NCBI GenBank assembly: GCA_964016885.1
Contig: OZ024746.1
Location: forward strand, 101,928,001-101,992,000
Source: Eledone cirrhosa
Lineage: Eukaryota
Direction: 5' to 3'
Length of the DNA: 64,000 nucleotides
The first letter of the stretch is position 1, and each line of letters starts with the position of its first letter. Under the pieces are notes generated by a model. It was not told the origin of the DNA. It saw nothing but the letters and a program-made list of their open reading frames with translations, and did no database searches. Position numbers and translations under genes: made by a program. Below are positions 3,054 through 16,121 of the stretch, in pieces.

Positions 3054-3724
3054 GGGAAAAGGAAGAGGAAAAGGAAAGGGAAAAAGAAAAGGAGGAGAGC
3101 ACAAGCACGGACCTGAAAGAAAATGATATACCCTCCGCTACAGGCAGGGAGGGCAGGCCGGGCAACCAACAAGCTAAGGGCAAAGGTGAAAAGCGAAATC
3201 ACCTTCCGAAGGAGAACCAAGCGCAGAGGGACCAGTGGACAACTGTTCAAAGAAAGAACAGAAAGCACCGAGACACTGGGAGCAAAAAACACCAAGTAAT
3301 GTGCAAGTTTTTCAAGAACGGGACATGCTGGCATGGAGAGACAGGGATGGGATGCAGATTCGCCCACCCTAGGTCTCAAACGAACTATGCCCATCATACT
3401 CGCGCAACATGCCCCAGCCAAAGCCGAAATAAGCCGCTCCAGAAGTATGCTGATGTCGCGCGTGCTGCACCAACAAGGAGAAGGCACGCACATGCCGACG
3501 AGATACAGATGGCAGCAGCAGATCAGAAAAATTTTTTAGTGATGGCAGAGAAGATTGTGAGACAGCTGACCTGGCTGCATCGTCTCCAGAGCCAGGGTCA
3601 TCCACACCAGCACTCGAGACCACCGCAGTTAAGGGACCCAGATTGGCCGCCGCTGACACCAGACCAGGTGTCATACCGACAGCCATTACTGGCACCCCAA
3701 AAGTCACACCAGTGCTGCTGCTGA
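3054..3724 (+). CDS. Family A ORF1, C-terminal part (CCCH zinc finger)
   Basis: Non-repetitive end of track ORF 2402..3724: [22 protein letters not shown] finger, ends SHQCCC*. No start codon because the element is truncated at the TA tract. Confidence 0.75.
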
Positions 3725-6684
3725 ATGTCAGGGGCCTGGTGAAACTCAGCAACATGAGTAAAATTTCCTACCTGGGAGACTTAGCCATAAGCAATCAAGC
3801 ACTATGCATGGCACTAACCGAAACGCACCTGACAAGCAGTATAGCAGATGCAGAAATACATATACCGAAATATACTGTATTTCGTTCGGACAGGAAGGAG
3901 AGAACTCATGGTGGGGTTGCTCTGTATATCCGTGAAGATGTCACACCAATTGTACTGTTGACACATTCAAACTCAGTCTGTGACACACTGATAATACATA
4001 TGAAGCAACTACAGACGGTAATATGTGTCACATATCGGCCGCCCGATGCCCCCAGTCATGAGGGTAAATTTGAGGATAGCCTAAGTAGGATAGAAGAGGT
4101 CCTTGACAAACTGGACCAGGGTCTCAACATCCTACTGCTGGGAGACTTCAACCTACCAAAGGTCAAATGGCCTGAGGGCCACCTCCTCCCTGGAATGACG
4201 TCAATAGAACAGAGACAGACGGAATCCCTGCTGGCCCTCACACACAGGCTGTTCATGGAGCAAGCAATACTCCTCCCAACAAGAGGCGAAAATGTCCTGG
4301 ACCTCTGTTTTACAAACAACGAAGTGCTCATCCACAATGTAAAGGTGACACCAACAATTCTCTCGGATCATAACTTGGTAGAGCTAATGATATGTGGTCC
4401 AAGAGAACCAACAGAGACAAAACCACCAAGAAGCTCCGGGACGCTATCCAGCCTTAACTTCTACGGGGCTGACTGGAAGAAGATTAAGAGTGAAATCCGG
4501 AAGCAAACATGGAGTGCAAACATCGCCACACAAGACACTAACACACAATTTCAACACTTCATGACAACGATACACACCATATGCAAAAAGTGTGTCCCGG
4601 AGAAAGAGGCAAACAGACACAAAAATCTTATTCCCAGAGATAGGAAAATCCTTATGAGACGTAGAACTAAACTCTCAAACCAGTTGAATAGTCAACAAAA
4701 CCAAAACAAGAAGGAATCCTATTTGAAACGTGCACTACTTGACACCGAGATTGCACTCAAGCTTTCACATGAGAATGAGAGGGCAAGGAAAGAGAACAGG
4801 GCCATAGAAAACATTAAAACAAACCCTAAGGCCTTCTTTAAATTTGCAAAAGAAACTGCCTCAGTACACTGCAAGATTGGACCACTCTTCCACACGGACG
4901 GTTCATTAACCGAAAATCCCCAAGAGATATGTGAAATACTGAACGAACAGTACAAAAGTGTCTTCACATGTCCACTGAGGCACATGCAAATAACGAAGCC
5001 AGAGGAGTTCTTTGATGCCACAACACTACATCAAGAAATGGCAACCATCAACCACATAGACATAACGGAGGAGGATGTGGTGTACGCCATTGATGAAATT
5101 AGAACAGACTCGGCTGCTGGACCTGATGGATTCCCAGCAGTTCTCCTAAAAATATGTAAGCGGGCCTTAGCAACTCCACTGAAGATGCTCTTCAGAAGCT
5201 CCTTGGCTAGCGGTGTACTACCCAGGGAGCTGAAAGAAGGCACAATATGCCCTATCCATAAAGGAGGTAGTAGAGCGGAGGCCAAGAACTATAGGCCAGT
5301 CTCCCTGACGTCGCATATCAGTAAGGTCATGGAGCGAGTCGTCAGAAAGAAACTAATCACTTTCCTCGAAGAAAATGACCGCCTGACTAGCACGCAACAT
5401 GGCTTCCGCCCAGGAAGAAGCTGCCTTACACAGCTGCTACATCACTACGACTGGGTACTGAGACAGCTACTAGACAGCTGACATGTAGACGTGATATATC
5501 TTGACTTTGCGAAGGCCTTTGACAAGGTCGACCACGGAATGATATGTCACAAACTACACGGACTCGGCATAACTGGAAAAGTAGGTGAGTGGCTGCATGG
5601 CTTCCTGAGGGACAGAAGCCAGGCAGTCGCAGCAAATGGGGCCCTCTCGAGGGAAACACCGATAACAAGTGGGGTGCCTCAGGGGACAGTCCTAGGACCA
5701 CTACTGTTTTTGGTGGCTCTCTCGGACATGCCCTCTGTGGTGCATGCAACAACATCCCTCACTAGCTATGCTGATGACACTAAGGTAGCACAGGCAATCA
5801 AAAACCCGGCTGACGCTGCCCTCTTACAGCAGGATCTGGATGCCATATACAGATGGGCGGAAGAAAACAACATGCAGTTTAATGCTGGCAAATTTCAAGC
5901 CCTACAATACAAACCTGCAAACACAAACACAAATATAGCGGAACACAGCTACACAGGACCAGGAGGGACCGATATCCCCGTGTCAAAATCGATACGAGAC
6001 CTGGGCATAGACATGAGCGATGATGCATCTTTTTCTTCACACATCATGAAGGTGGCGACAGCATGTAGACGATTCGCTGGCTGGATCTTGAGGACTTTCC
6101 TTACAAGAGATCGAGACACCATGTTGACACTGTGGAGGACTTTTGTCCTAAGCCGCCTGGACTACTGCTCCCAGCTGTGGTCACCCCATAGTGTCAAACT
6201 AACCACAGAGCTTGAGGCAATCCAGCGAAGCTACACCAAGAGGATTGCCAAGATGAGGGAGACAAGCTACTGGGAGAGGCTGAAGGAACTGAACCTCTAC
6301 TCCTTGGAGCGAAGACGGGAGAGATACGCAGTGATCTACATGTGGAAAATCCTGGAGGGACTAGCACCAAACTTTGGCATTGGGAGCTGGACCAACCGTC
6401 GAACAGGACGTCACTGTGTGGTGCCAAAGGTCCCGTCTTCCACATCTAGAATAAGGAGCAGGTATTGCAATAGCCTGGGATTCAAGGGCCCTCAACTCTT
6501 CAACAGGCTGCCGAGGCATCTGCGAGACTTGCATGACGTGGAGGTGGATGTCTTTAAGAAACATCTCGACACGTTGTTATCCAGGATCCCGGATGAGCCC
6601 ACAGCAAGACACGAGGGAAACCTAAGGGCAGCAGCAACAAACTCCCTCCTACACCAGTGGCCAACCTATACAGGCTGGAGATAA
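3643..6684 (+). pseudogene. Family A ORF2 (APE endonuclease + RT), interrupted by one in-frame TGA at 5479-5481
   Basis: EN motifs LLNVRG, LTETHL, YRPP, GDFN, LDLCF, SDH; RT motifs [32 protein letters not shown]. Track ORFs 3643..5481 and 5491..6684 are in the same frame, and the second copy has TCA (Ser) at this codon. Confidence 0.92.
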
Positions 6685-6758
6685 AATGTGTAGCAACAAG
6701 GGCGGTGCCCCAGCATGGCCTCAGCCGGATGGCTGAAACAGGTAAAAGAGTAAAAGAG

Positions 6759-7571
<813 letters not shown>

Positions 7572-9145: not shown

Positions 9146-11130
<1,985 letters not shown>

Positions 11131-11168
11131 TGTGCAGTTGAGCAGTTGAAGTATAAGGACGTGTTTTT
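11131..11168 (+). promoter_or_regulatory. Putative internal Pol II promoter of LINE B (Inr-like CAGTT + DPE-like GGACGTG)
   Basis: GCAGTTG occurs twice at the 5' junction and GGACGTGTT at 11157, about 27 nt into the element. This matches the arrangement known from jockey-superfamily LINE promoters. Confidence 0.5.
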
Positions 11169-11240
11169 ACTTCTCTCCCCGAGTAAGCAGCAAGTCACAC
11201 AGCCACAAAACAAAACCACAAGACAAAACCAAACAAACAA

Positions 11241-11830
11241 AAATTGACCGGTTAATACATTTTCATACATCTATATTATTATATATTTGAAAATTGACCG
11301 GTTAATACATTTTTCATACATCTATATTATTATATATTTGAAAATTGACCGGTTAATACATTTTTCATACATCTATATTATTATATATTTGAAACCACGT
11401 GTTTTCGAACTTGTGAGTACATTTTCTTTTAACTACAAATTATTATTATATACTTTCGTCTTTTCATTAATTTCAAATAACCAGAATATACATATATATA
11501 TATATATATACTCATATTTATATATATACGCTTCTCACTCACACACAAGAAAAATATATATTGAAATACTTAACTAAAACACACACACACGAACTTGTGA
11601 GTACATTTTCCTTTAACTACAAATTATTATTATATACTTTCGTCTTTTCATTAACTTAATTAATTTCAAATAACCAGAATATACATATATATATATATAT
11701 ATACTCATATTTATATATATACGCTTCTCACTCACACACAAGAAAAACAAAAAACAAAAATAAATCAAAAATAAATTTAAAAAAAAAAAATATATATATA
11801 TTGAAATACTTAACTAAAACACACACACAC
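11241..11830 (+). repeat. Tandem repeats in the LINE B 5' UTR: 3 x ~50 bp, then 2 x ~184-240 bp
   Basis: AAATTGACCGGTTAATAC at 11241, 11291 and 11342; GAACTTGTGAGTACATTTTC at 11407 and 11591, both units ending TTGAAATACTTAACTAAAACACAC. Confidence 0.9.
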
Positions 11831-11841
11831 TCAAAACTAGA

Positions 11842-13008
11842 ATGGCTAACCAGCAAAAATCCAAACAGAACTGGTCTGATAATGAAATCGACATTCTAAT
11901 AAACACATGGCATTGCCTTTCCCAAACAGAAAATATAGATGCTTCATCTCTGAACGACATTGCTAAACGTACAGTTCAATTTTTGAAAACTCGATCTGAA
12001 CAACAGATTCAAAATAAATTAAAGCAAATCGAAATTGCTTTTAAATTAATCAATAAACATTTGGATAAACTACGGTGTGTTTTCTCTTCGAATGCTGTCC
12101 AGCAGCAGCAACAACAACAACAGCAGCTACAACAGCAACAACAACAACAGCTACAACAACAACATCAACAACAGCTACAACAACAACAACAACATCAACA
12201 TCAGCAACAACAACAGTGTGAACCACTCCTTGATTCATCAACAATGGCCGATCTACTAAATGAAACTATTGACCCCCCAGTAGCCTCTGTCTCACAGCAT
12301 GAAACGCCACATCCTTTCTCTGGCCCAGCAGTCCAATCATCACCACTGCCAACATCTCTGCCTACTACTACTACTACTACTACAACATTTTTGTCCACTG
12401 CTATGTCAAGGAATTTACCTTCTAATACCAGAACAAGAACTCTCCCTCCCACAGTCCACAAAGGTCGTCAAATCCTACCCAAACCATCATCTACACCTCT
12501 CACAACACCCACACCCATATACCCACCCACTCGAAACCCCATCATTTGCCGCTACTCTCTACGCTATAGAATATGTACGGATAGTGGCTGCAAATTCACC
12601 CATTTACCTAGGACAAAACGATCTATCCCCACAAACAGCCACCACCATAATACATACTCTAATTTAACACCAACACAACCACCAATAACTCAAACAAGGA
12701 ATCCACAAATCTGCCGTTTTTCCCTGCGAGACAGATTGTGTTTAGACCGGGATTGTCCCTTTACCCATCTCCCGGGGACCCGTCGGATAAATGAAAATAA
12801 AATTAAAAATAAAAGCAAAAACAAAAACCATAACCTACATAAAAATAACCACTACCACAGTCACCAACAGTCTTCTAAACAGGAAACTTCTTCCTCTTTT
12901 TTAGCCATAATGAATCTGGCAAAAGAACTGGAAAAAAACATTCGAGCTATCACCCAGCACCACCCTCCACTATCACCCCACTGCACAAACTCCCATTGCT
13001 GCCATTAA
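11842..13008 (+). CDS. LINE B ORF1: Myb/SANT(trihelix)-like N-terminus, polyQ, Pro/Thr-rich linker, two CCCH fingers
   Basis: 388-aa ATG ORF; WSDNEIDILINTW...RSEQQIQNKLKQI; CRYSLRYRICTDSGCKFTH and CRFSLRDRLCLDRDCPFTH. Confidence 0.85.
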   Translation: MANQQKSKQNWSDNEIDILINTWHCLSQTENIDASSLNDIAKRTVQFLKTRSEQQIQNKLKQIEIAFKLINKHLDKLRCVFSSNAVQQQQQQQQQLQQQQQQQLQQQHQQQLQQQQQHQHQQQQQCEPLLDSSTMADLLNETIDPPVASVSQHETPHPFSGPAVQSSPLPTSLPTTTTTTTTFLSTAMSRNLPSNTRTRTLPPTVHKGRQILPKPSSTPLTTPTPIYPPTRNPIICRYSLRYRICTDSGCKFTHLPRTKRSIPTNSHHHNTYSNLTPTQPPITQTRNPQICRFSLRDRLCLDRDCPFTHLPGTRRINENKIKNKSKNKNHNLHKNNHYHSHQQSSKQETSSSFLAIMNLAKELEKNIRAITQHHPPLSPHCTNSHCCH

Positions 13009-16000
13009 CAAACAAACAAATTAACAACACACCAAAACAATTAAAACCATCCACTCTCGCCTCTACATTTTTGCTTAACGCCCAAGGCATCAGCCCTTCC
13101 ACCAATACTCAAAAATGGAAGATCAAATTCCTGGAGGACTGGATTGATGTCCATCCAAACCACATCCCTTTCTTCGTCCTCACTGAAACCCATCTCGGTA
13201 ACCTCCACTTGGAAGCCGAGGTGAAAGTGAAAAATTTCAAAGCCATCCGTGCTGATCGCGCTGGCAGAAGAAAGGGCGGAACTGCCATTTATGTCCATAA
13301 TTCTTTCTCAACAGAGGCTATGAACATATTCACTAATGGATACTGTGAGGCAGTCACTGTATTCAGTCAAACCAACAACCTATTAGTAGTTGGGCTCTAT
13401 AGGCCACCCCAAACGCCTGTACCATGCTTCAAGGAATGCCTCAACAGCATAAAGTGTTTCATCCAAGAGTGTCACCCTGACAACATCTTAATGATGGGGG
13501 ACTTCAACCTGCCCGGAGTTGACTGGTCCACAAACACCCTGCCACCAGGTTCTTCTGCCTCAACCTCTGACAGGGAAGCTGTGGAATCGCTTCTTGACTT
13601 CATGGATGATTTCTTCCTATCCCAACTAGTGCTCGAACCAACGAGGTGCCACAAAAACGTCCTAGACTTAATTTTCAGCAATCACACTGACAATATCCAC
13701 AATATTGCAGTGGAGAAAACTCTACTCTCTGATCATGACATGGTTCTCTGTGATCTGAGATTCCACCGTCCAATATACAAACCCAATGTCATTTCTCCTG
13801 TCCATCCGTTTGACGCTATGGATTTCCACAATGCAAACTGGGAAGCGATCAGTCATGATCTTGCACATGTCGACTGGTCCTTCACGCACACTCATACACC
13901 CACTAACATCAAAAAGTCCTGGCAGACATTTGTGGACACTGTTACAAACATATGTGCTAAACACACCCCATTAAGAACTATAAACAAATCTAAGAGCAGA
14001 ATCCCTAGAAATAGAAAAACGCTCATCAGAAAAATTAAGAGAACGAACAAAAAAATCAACAATCTGAAATACTGTCAGCAGCAACACATCAACTTGACTG
14101 CCATTTCATCACTAGAGATTAAAAAACATAACCTCCAAAACAACATAATGTCCCTCATCAACAATCAGAGAAGAGCTGAAGAGGCCTGGGCCATTGAGAA
14201 GATCAAACTCAATCCCAAAGTGTTCTTTTCATTTGCAAAAAAACACAAAATCACTGGCTCTACTGTTGGCCCTCTAATTGATGAAAATGCTCTAATTGAT
14301 GAAAATGGCACTCTTCAAGACAATGCTAAAACCATGGGTGAGATACTGCAGAAACAATACTGCTCTGTTTTCAGCAATCCTGATATGGCCGATCTGGGCT
14401 GTATCGGCGATGTTACTCCCCATTACACCTTATCGGACATAACGTTTGGCGCCCCTGATGTCTTGGCGGCAATAAAGGAAATCAAGCATAATTCAGCAGT
14501 AGGTCCCGATAGGTTCCCTGCTTGTGTCTTGAAGGCGTGTCAACACCAACTTGCTTCTCCTCTTGCCAATCTGTGGCGGAACTCACTGGATGCTGGATAT
14601 GTGCCAGAAAACCTTCTATCCCAGTCTGTTGTCCCAGTTTTCAAAAAGGGAAACAAATCCCTTGCCGTGAATTACCGTCCAATCTCACTCACCTCTCATA
14701 TCATTAAGGTATTTGAGCGAGTGGTGAGATCGCGAATGACCCACTTCCTTGAGAGTAACAATATGCTGAACTCCAACCAGCATGGATTCCGTAATGGAAG
14801 GGATTGCCTGACGCAACTACTGCATCACTTTGATGACATTTTGAGAGCCTTGGGAGAGGGTTCCAACACTGATGTTATCTACCTTGATTTCAGCAAGGCC
14901 TTTGACAGGGTTGATCATAACCTTCTACTGAGAAAGCTGTCCAATATTGGTGTCACTGGAAAGCTGCTGCAGTGGATCAAGAGCTTCCTGTCAAACAGAA
15001 CCCAACATGTTGTAGTTGAGGGAGTCAAATCAAGCCCAGCCAAAGTCAGTAGTGGAGTCCCACAAGGCACTGTGTTGGGCCCACTTCTCTTCATCATCTA
15101 TATTAATGACATCACTGACATCATCAAACACAGCAACATTAAAATTTTCGCTGATGATTCCAAGCTCCAAAAGGTCATCAATGGCGTGGATGACCGGATA
15201 AGCCTTCAGTCAGACCTACTGGCTGTTACCCAATGGGCAGAAAAGAACAACATGTTACTGAACGAAGACAAATTCGAACTGATCCACTTTGGAAAAGAGG
15301 ATGCTCTGAAACTCCCGTACTCCCTTCCCTCCGGGGAAACTCTCGTGGCATCTAACAACATCAGAGACTTGGGAGTAACCGTGGACAGCAACATAAGCTG
15401 GACCACGCATATAAGCAGCAAAGTTGACATGGCCCGCAGAATGTGTTCCTGGATCCTCAGAACCTTCCAGTCGAGAGATTCCCGCACCATTATCCTTCTC
15501 TTCTCTACTTTCGCCCGACCACACCTTGAATACTGTTGTCCACTGTGGTCTCCCCACACGAAACAAAGTATCATGAAACTTGAAGCTCCTCAAAGGGCAA
15601 TCACAAAAAAGATAGATGGCATGTCAGACCTTGACTACTGGGGTCGATTGGAAAACCTGAAACTTTACTCACTCCAACGTCGCCGTGAGCGTTATATTAT
15701 CTGCATGATGTGGAAAATGTTCCATCATCACTGCCCAAATGATGTTGGCATCGCCTTCAAGATACACCCAAGGCTTGGGCCCCGTGCTATCCGTCCCATT
15801 CAAAAATCTAAATCGCAACTCATAACAACAATACGGCACAATTATTTCACCTCAATCGGCCCTGCTCTCTTCAACATCACACCAGGACACGTCAAAACAG
15901 AAACTGACCACACAAAATTCAAGAAATCTTTGGACAAATTCCTCCAAGTAATCCCGGACAAACCACCCACACCCGGATATGTCTCCGCAAACAGTAATTC

Positions 16001-16034
16001 TCTTCTCGAATGGGCCATGGTGCCCAAATCCTGA
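12996..16034 (+). CDS. LINE B ORF2 (APE endonuclease + RT), no AUG before the EN domain
   Basis: LLNAQG, LTETHL, YRPP, GDFN, LDLIF, SDH; [32 protein letters not shown]. The frame is open from 12879 and the track start is TTG. An in-frame 18-bp duplication at 14272-14307 gives [12 protein letters not shown]. Confidence 0.93.
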
Positions 16035-16121
16035 ATTGAAAGACTTCGCCAGGTGGTGCTATTAAGTTAGACATGGCCTGGGCCAATACTGGCCAAAACA
16101 TTTCAAAGTTATTCAAAGTTA

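Follow-up and report, generated by a model that had tools for sequence, protein, structure and literature searches.

Introduction

How ORF2 is translated in two-ORF LINEs has been called an open question, and these elements are thought to need little ORF2 protein (PMC3894237). SART1 and mammalian L1, both two-ORF LINEs with an APE endonuclease, make a separate ORF2 protein, SART1 from a stop-start overlap by UAAUG coupling and L1 by reinitiation across a 63-nt spacer (PMC5972666, PMC3894237). The stated precedent for -1 frameshifting in a LINE is the pair TRE5-A and TRE3-A of Dictyostelium, APE-type non-LTR elements in which a -1 frameshift is required for ORF2 according to a review (PMC5911963, which in the part covered gives neither a slippery sequence nor a test); the covered part of PMC5633606 describes the TRE ORFs as overlapping and does not use the word 'frameshift'. 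A general review of frameshifting (PMC5009743) has, in the parts covered, no -1 shift between ORF1 and ORF2 of a LINE, and a term search for 'frameshift' in the covered text of PMC4120745 and PMC13343379 gave nothing. In the literature covered, which took in little of the subscription journals and of Repbase Reports, where an earlier remark is possible, we found no description of a slippery site that is conserved among CR1 elements or any other LINEs of animals.

Among viruses, HIV-1 gag-pol uses the heptamer U_UUU_UUA (PMC5009743). The same review lists G_GA and G_UU as natural variants of the XXX triplet, gives G_GAU_UUU as the site of pea enation mosaic virus, and describes some viral shifts that apparently work without stimulators and are useful at low efficiency.

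Here we analyse LINE B, an element in a 64,000-nt stretch of the 3.0 Gb Eledone cirrhosa genome (referred to as the window; coordinates are those of the window, and features are on the + strand). LINE B resembles SART1 and L1 in being a two-ORF APE LINE that would need little ORF2 protein, but its ORF2 lies in the -1 frame and shares 130 nt with ORF1, an overlap that has no AUG. With retroviral gag-pol it shares the HIV-1 heptamer in the same phase, and a zinc-finger protein that would be joined to enzymes by a -1 shift within an overlap; on the other hand it is a non-LTR element, has no protease domain and no stem-loop that we could find, and its relatives use three heptamers instead of one. 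Judged by its sequence, the site may work like a retroviral gag-pol signal. TRE5-A and TRE3-A, likened to LINE B through the review statement, differ from it as amoeba elements aimed at tRNA genes.

Structure and classification of LINE B

LINE B (11134..16121) is seemingly full-length and is flanked by (TA)n tracts; its 5' start recurs in two of six fetched copies and its 3' tail in all six. The family is young: among 1381 candidates, at least 40 copies are about 100% identical over 601 nt (40/40 scored). ORF2 is open over 1045 codons in 5/6 fetched copies, and since the family is young as well, the ORF1/ORF2 layout is not a lesion of the window copy.

ORF1 (11842..13008, from the ATG at 11842 to the TAA ending at 13008) encodes 388 aa with a weak Myb/SANT-like N-terminus, a poly-Q tract, two CCCH-type fingers found by pattern match (12547..12603 and 12712..12768) and a helix-like C-terminal tail. 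In a Pfam scan PF13837 matched ORF1 below the cut-off (E 0.0024), and an Atlas search with ORF1 returned zf-CCCH clusters only, with scores up to 0.82, i.e. under 0.9, which we treat as a lead only. The poly-Q tract lies at 12100-12215, and three of the copies that were fetched have an ORF1 of 383, 391 and 392 aa, compared with 388 here. The ORF2 frame (12879..16034) is open for 1051 codons and contains an S/T/P-rich linker, an APE endonuclease (motif I from 13074) and a reverse transcriptase (PF03372, PF14529, PF00078); the Pfam scan found no protease domain in LINE B. The element ends in a terminal hairpin and a 10-nt tandem-repeat tail, with no poly(A) (16081..16121).

LINE B most likely belongs to the CR1 clade of the Jockey superfamily, as judged from its sequence: it combines ORF1 with an ORF2 carrying an APE endonuclease and a reverse transcriptase. 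Typical CR1 traits are a short tandem-repeat 3' tail in place of poly(A) and frequent 5' truncation. The tail unit is present in all six fetched copies of family B (two units in five, one unit in one) and a complete 5' end in 2/6. ORF2 of LINE B is 35% identical to that of LINE A, a second CR1-group element in the window (3113-6760), whose ORF2 is broken by one in-frame TGA (5479-5481), while many other LINE A copies have an open frame of 1076 codons. By eye, the reverse transcriptases of LINE A and of family C from the same genome are close to those of the octopus elements O.sinensis_114_LINE and O.sinensis_201_LINE, which are classed as Jockey/CR1 in Table S7 of PMC10294476; that paper classes elements from the reverse transcriptase alone, its main text does not contain the word 'frameshift', and in the part of its octopus set covered no reverse transcriptase row was seen to match LINE B itself. 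The Proto2 clade, a first guess, was dropped, as the reverse transcriptase motifs of Proto2-1_SK and Proto2-1_HM are plainly unlike by eye.

Some further features were noted. By eye, the 5' UTR (11240-11830) contains about three copies of a unit of about 62 nt and a duplication of about 190 nt with an internal (TA)n. The 3' ends of family B enter (TA)n in 6/6 fetched copies (L176-L181), as does that of LINE A, and the (TA)n flanks (11000-11133 and from 16122 onward at LINE B) suggest microsatellite targeting, with target-site duplications hidden. LINE B (16050-16121) and the loci L098, L099, L105, L108, L111, L112 and L183 share, by eye, a 3'-end layout that consists of a G-rich GGYGG motif (in most of them), a terminal hairpin, AAC or AAAC and then at least two repeats of 5-10 nt, probably a recognition signal for the reverse transcriptase. 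Elsewhere in the window, positions 29429-61548 are occupied by a 32 kb satellite with a 16-bp unit (2009 copies, 89% matches).

The slippery site in the ORF1/ORF2 overlap

The original prediction placed a -1 frameshift site at the beginning of the overlap, and its description of the sequence proved accurate. The heptamer U_UUU_UUA occupies 12897..12903, where ORF1 reads TCT TTT TTA, i.e. in X_XXY_YYZ phase. A TAA (12876..12878) shuts the -1 frame on the 5' side, so the frame starts 18 nt upstream of the heptamer, and from there it stays open into ORF2. As was also predicted, ORF2 has no ATG before EAMNIF: the first in-frame ATG (13320..13322) is codon 148, inside the endonuclease and after the LLNAQG and LTETHL motifs. 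A start at this codon would mean the loss of 147 codons, and with them endonuclease motifs I and II and their active-site residues. SART1-type coupling was considered for LINE B and rejected, as there is no overlapping or adjacent stop and AUG and no in-frame ATG before 13320.

The site is intact in 51 of the 55 family-B loci that span the junction, a set in which some loci are repeat fetches of a single genomic place or the window's own copy. A lone heptamer in one 42-codon overlap has a chance probability of about 0.22 under a broad motif definition, which is weak on its own; it is conservation across families that lifts the site above chance. A second in-phase heptamer, A_AAA_AAC (12933..12939), overlooked in the original prediction, was rejected as a signal: it occurs in family B only and is not kept in the sister family B2, which has G_AAA_AAC.

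We consider that -1 programmed frameshifting at this site would produce a rare fusion of ORF1 residues 1-354 with the endonuclease and the reverse transcriptase, of about 1,397 aa, and give this reading, which is drawn from sequence comparison, a probability of roughly 85%. At U_UUU_UUA a minority of ribosomes would slip back by one base, with the tRNAs on UUU and UUA re-pairing in tandem to UUU UUU. These ribosomes would go on to read SHNESGKR..., the S/T/P-rich linker (177 nt to motif I), the endonuclease and the reverse transcriptase, so that ...ETSSSF(L or F)-SHNESGKR... is the sequence predicted across the junction and 354 + 1043 = 1,397 aa the predicted size. Ribosomes that do not shift would append a 34-codon helix-like tail that is absent from the fusion. 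The fusion would probably stay whole, because the Pfam scan found no protease domain.

Conservation among the relatives of LINE B

Relatives in the same genome are LINE A, B2, C and the decayed family B3. LINE A, whose endonuclease is 33% identical to that of B, carries at the homologous site an A_AAU_UUU (3529-3535) overlapping a U_UUU_UUA (3532-3538), both in ORF1 phase (3529..3538), which the original prediction had overlooked. In B2 the site is present in 6/6 copies matching the junction pattern, and family C keeps T6-A in 17/17 junction matches. An endonuclease alignment of 8 sequences, scanned against marine metagenomes, yielded 83 pattern matches that reduce to 21 loci, of which L095 does not contain the junction; the near-duplicates L097, L098, L100, L108 and L111 each carry their partner's site. 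Fifteen metagenome loci together with A, B, B2 and C make up 19 representatives, with endonucleases 20-94% identical. Outside this set stand L093 and L126 (decayed), L092 (5' truncated) and the distant L115. For the statistics 15 rows were used, after L103, L104, L106 and B2 had been dropped as at least 70% identical to another row.

Other searches added little. Viral contig scans gave one marginal 16-residue match and then none, a genome contig scan gave one distant locus (L115), the TETWL-type pattern was not found in the source genome, a protein search with L114 led again to family A among the loci examined, a word-based homologue search returned 4 proteins, and no RNA datasets are listed as containing the window stretch.

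In every one of the 19, ORF1 and ORF2 overlap by 97-325 nt with ORF2 in the -1 frame, and the homologous phenylalanine of ORF1 is part of a slippery heptamer. The heptamer is T_TTT_TTA in 10, G_GAT_TTT in 7 and G_TTT_TTA in 2; thus ten conform to X_XXY_YYZ strictly, and nine do so through the listed variants G_GA or G_UU. An alignment of relatives, proposed originally as a check on whether TTT TTA is kept in phase, therefore bears out the TTT codon and a slippery heptamer in 19/19 across the lineage, but not one fixed heptamer, as there are three forms. When the ORF1 proteins were aligned with no use of frame information, the phenylalanine took column 291 in 16 rows and column 290 in the other 3, which shows that the site is homologous and not picked for its frame; in all 19 it is at the start of the helix-like tail, downstream of the CCCH fingers. 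The G_GAU_UUU of umbraviruses and dianthoviruses is thus used by 7/19 of these LINEs. In pea enation mosaic virus a stop follows 3 nt past the site, whereas the LINE ORF1s run on for 23-94 codons with no detected 3' structure.

The heptamers could also be explained as the by-product of a conserved xFL motif that opens the ORF1 tail, combined with codon bias and without any recoding role. F followed by L or R is indeed conserved as protein in 19/19, and dead copies readily lose the site. However, with the amino acids fixed, a synonymous-codon null predicts 1.7/15 slippery sites, as opposed to the 15/15 found. The phenylalanine codon at the site is never TTC (19/19), while TTT makes up only 38-39% of phenylalanine codons elsewhere, and the leucine codon closing the heptamer is TTA in 12/12, where TTA accounts for 8-11% of leucine codons. 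In the rows whose heptamer is placed one codon further 5' (G_GAT_TTT), it is followed by CTG, CTC, CTA or CGG (7/7). Control codons in the TETHL and GDFN motifs are mixed in the same 15 rows (His CAT 7, CAC 8; Glu GAG 7, GAA 8). Elsewhere in these elements, over 13,393 codons, the three heptamers occur in phase only twice; heptamers by the broad definition, whose XXX list was taken from PMC5009743 and chosen after the data had been seen, occur in phase 79 times in these 13,393 codons, by which 5.7/15 overlaps are expected to have one somewhere. Such a by-product would, moreover, leave the translation of ORF2 unaccounted for, and we regard it as very improbable. A caution is needed: the seven G_GAT_TTT rows group as a single clade (91/91), 4/16 inner branches of the tree being well supported, and multiplied probabilities therefore overstate independence.

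The -1 frame itself points to the same place. From the site to the ORF1 stop it contains 0 stops in 15 representatives, compared with 36.8 expected from the ORF1 amino acids, while matched stretches 5' of the site have an ordinary density (86 stops, 96.8 expected). The closest 5' stop is at a median of 12 nt from the site, and in L113 a TGA abuts the heptamer directly, leaving no room for an upstream start. The original prediction had also made the case depend on the absence of an AUG ahead of the endonuclease in related families, and 17/19 indeed have no ATG before motif I, the exceptions being L109 and L110.

These data bear on termination-reinitiation at the ORF1 stop, or non-AUG initiation from a near-cognate codon upstream of the endonuclease. 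A reinitiation-type mechanism is described for SART1 (PMC5972666) and L1 (PMC3894237), motif I is separated from the ORF1 stop by -1 to 77 nt across the 19 representatives, the ORF2 frame of LINE B offers CTG, TTG, ATT and ATC codons between the site and motif I, and L109 and L110 have usable in-frame ATGs before motif I. Nevertheless, reinitiation leaves unexplained why the -1 frame contains no stop over the 23-94 codons that precede the ORF1 stop, it accounts for neither the heptamer nor the codon covariation, and LINE B has no stop-start overlap and no in-frame ATG before 13320. We think it unlikely that ORF2 is reached in this way.

The original prediction offered a 3' splice acceptor as its alternative, with the pyrimidine tract and the AG at 12903-12904 joining an upstream exon to ORF2. 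The sequence CTCTTTTTTAG makes a good acceptor by eye, and an AG directly follows the site in 8/19. It is missing in the other 11/19, including L101 and L107 which retain T_TTT_TTA, and an acceptor requires no fixed ORF1 phase. Contigs from three runs (X1-X3) cross the B-type site unspliced, with no listed joint or loose end at 12905, and one A-type X3 contig has no AG; these runs disfavour splicing weakly, being only guessed RNA from other organisms, with contigs that drop rare forms and with the LINE A junction missed in X1 and X2. We give the splicing alternative very little credence. In favour of the frameshift reading, the same runs contain a diverged family that aligns in this region solely as an island, starting at 12895 (12895-12926 in the X3 record) between unalignable flanks; and, in keeping with the codon covariation, the A-type X3 contig has TTA changed to GTG with A_AAT_TTT seemingly intact (among 40 of 123 difference rows).

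Slippage of RNA polymerase on the T run could add one base, after which ordinary translation would yield the fusion, so the predicted product is identical. T6 runs are found in 10/19, and two family-B copies have lost one base within the run. Yet G_GAT_TTT, in 7/19, offers a run of four or five T only, and polymerase slippage gives no reason for the ORF1 phase or the X_XXY_YYZ pattern, which makes it a highly unlikely source of the fusion. 

Of about 12 database proteins with long N-terminal extensions before motif II, three (P0045, P0056 and P0088) carry the FF[RS] trace that a -1 reading would be expected to leave.

Stimulators and variant copies

Not all evidence is favourable. The original prediction had noted a weak GCCA..TGGC hairpin next to the site (12904..12920); the hairpin is there, with 4 bp, but it abuts the heptamer with zero spacer and is not a credible stimulator (folding z -0.42 and +0.41 relative to shuffles). 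Local structure 3' of the site reaches z < -2 in 0, 1 and 0 of the 19 representatives in three window sizes, in a search that left pseudoknots outside explicit modelling. Pairing with the cognate 3' end gave permutation P values of 0.36 and 0.63 over 10 families. In LINE B, 12914-12920 could pair with 16048-16054 (7 bp), which is not significant across families. In each of B, C, L111 and L112 a helix of 6-7 bp can form between +8..+11 and a segment 50-74 nt before the 3' terminus, but a long-range stimulator of this kind was not supported, as cognate pairs are no better than permuted ones. L111 and L112 have the same potential 6-bp helix, in which +8..+13 pairs with bases 64-65 nt before the terminus; this is the best single long-range hint, also not significant. 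Three of the sequence signs of a -1 signal are thus present (heptamer phase, the open and closed -1 frame, synonymous conservation) while the usual, though not universal, stimulator was not found. Because no stimulator is detectable, either local or by 3'-end pairing, a low shift rate is expected, and it would be set mainly by the heptamer. The original idea of an ORF1-ORF2 fusion by retrovirus-like frameshifting accordingly keeps its support in sequence conservation and loses the stimulatory structure; the shift itself we infer.

Variant copies form the second group of unfavourable observations. In family A, where old copies often lack the site, only 27/57 loci agree with the window across the 18 nt of the junction, and mismatches are more frequent at the site (8.9%) than in the flanks (3.7%). 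C_TTT_TTA is common to 3 copies of family A, and a T>G change by which both canonical heptamers are abolished recurs in several older ones. As several copies share such site-breaking variants, these must have been copied, perhaps in trans, and their carriers are possibly non-autonomous sub-lineages or mosaics. Dead copies would be unselected, and T runs presumably mutate fast. Site-breaking variants were noted in the family-A copies L038, L129, L152, L044 and L154 and in L034, L035 and L166. The decayed B3 copy L093 also has C_TTT_TTA.

CR1-like relatives do not all share the layout: in the distant L115 (32% identity) the overlap is +1 and ATGs are present. In L115:560-700, on a bacterial MAG contig, ORF1 ends in CCC TTT TAG, ORF2 is in the +1 frame and two ATGs lie upstream; the DNA is probably host DNA, and the junction is possibly a +1 shifty stop or an ordinary start.

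Significance

On the same sequence comparison, we lean somewhat towards a more general proposal, namely that a large and old CR1-group lineage never makes a free ORF2 protein. A bare heptamer within ORF1, upstream of its conserved C-terminal helix, would swap that helix for the endonuclease and reverse transcriptase in a Gag-Pol-like fusion that keeps the CCCH fingers, with the ORF1:ORF2 ratio fixed and cis preference possible. Any stimulator would then be of an unusual kind, such as a nascent helix, a protein or a few base pairs formed with the element's 3' end. The site allows a sharp test, as it is a seven-base signal with natural variants in a young, high-copy element with intact ORFs. If the proposal is true, the absence of a start codon in ORF2 would be explained, and these LINEs would provide natural low-rate frameshift sites that seemingly function without local structure. 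The active enzyme of these LINEs would be an ORF1-endonuclease-reverse transcriptase fusion, and the standard contrast between LINEs and LTR elements would be blurred.
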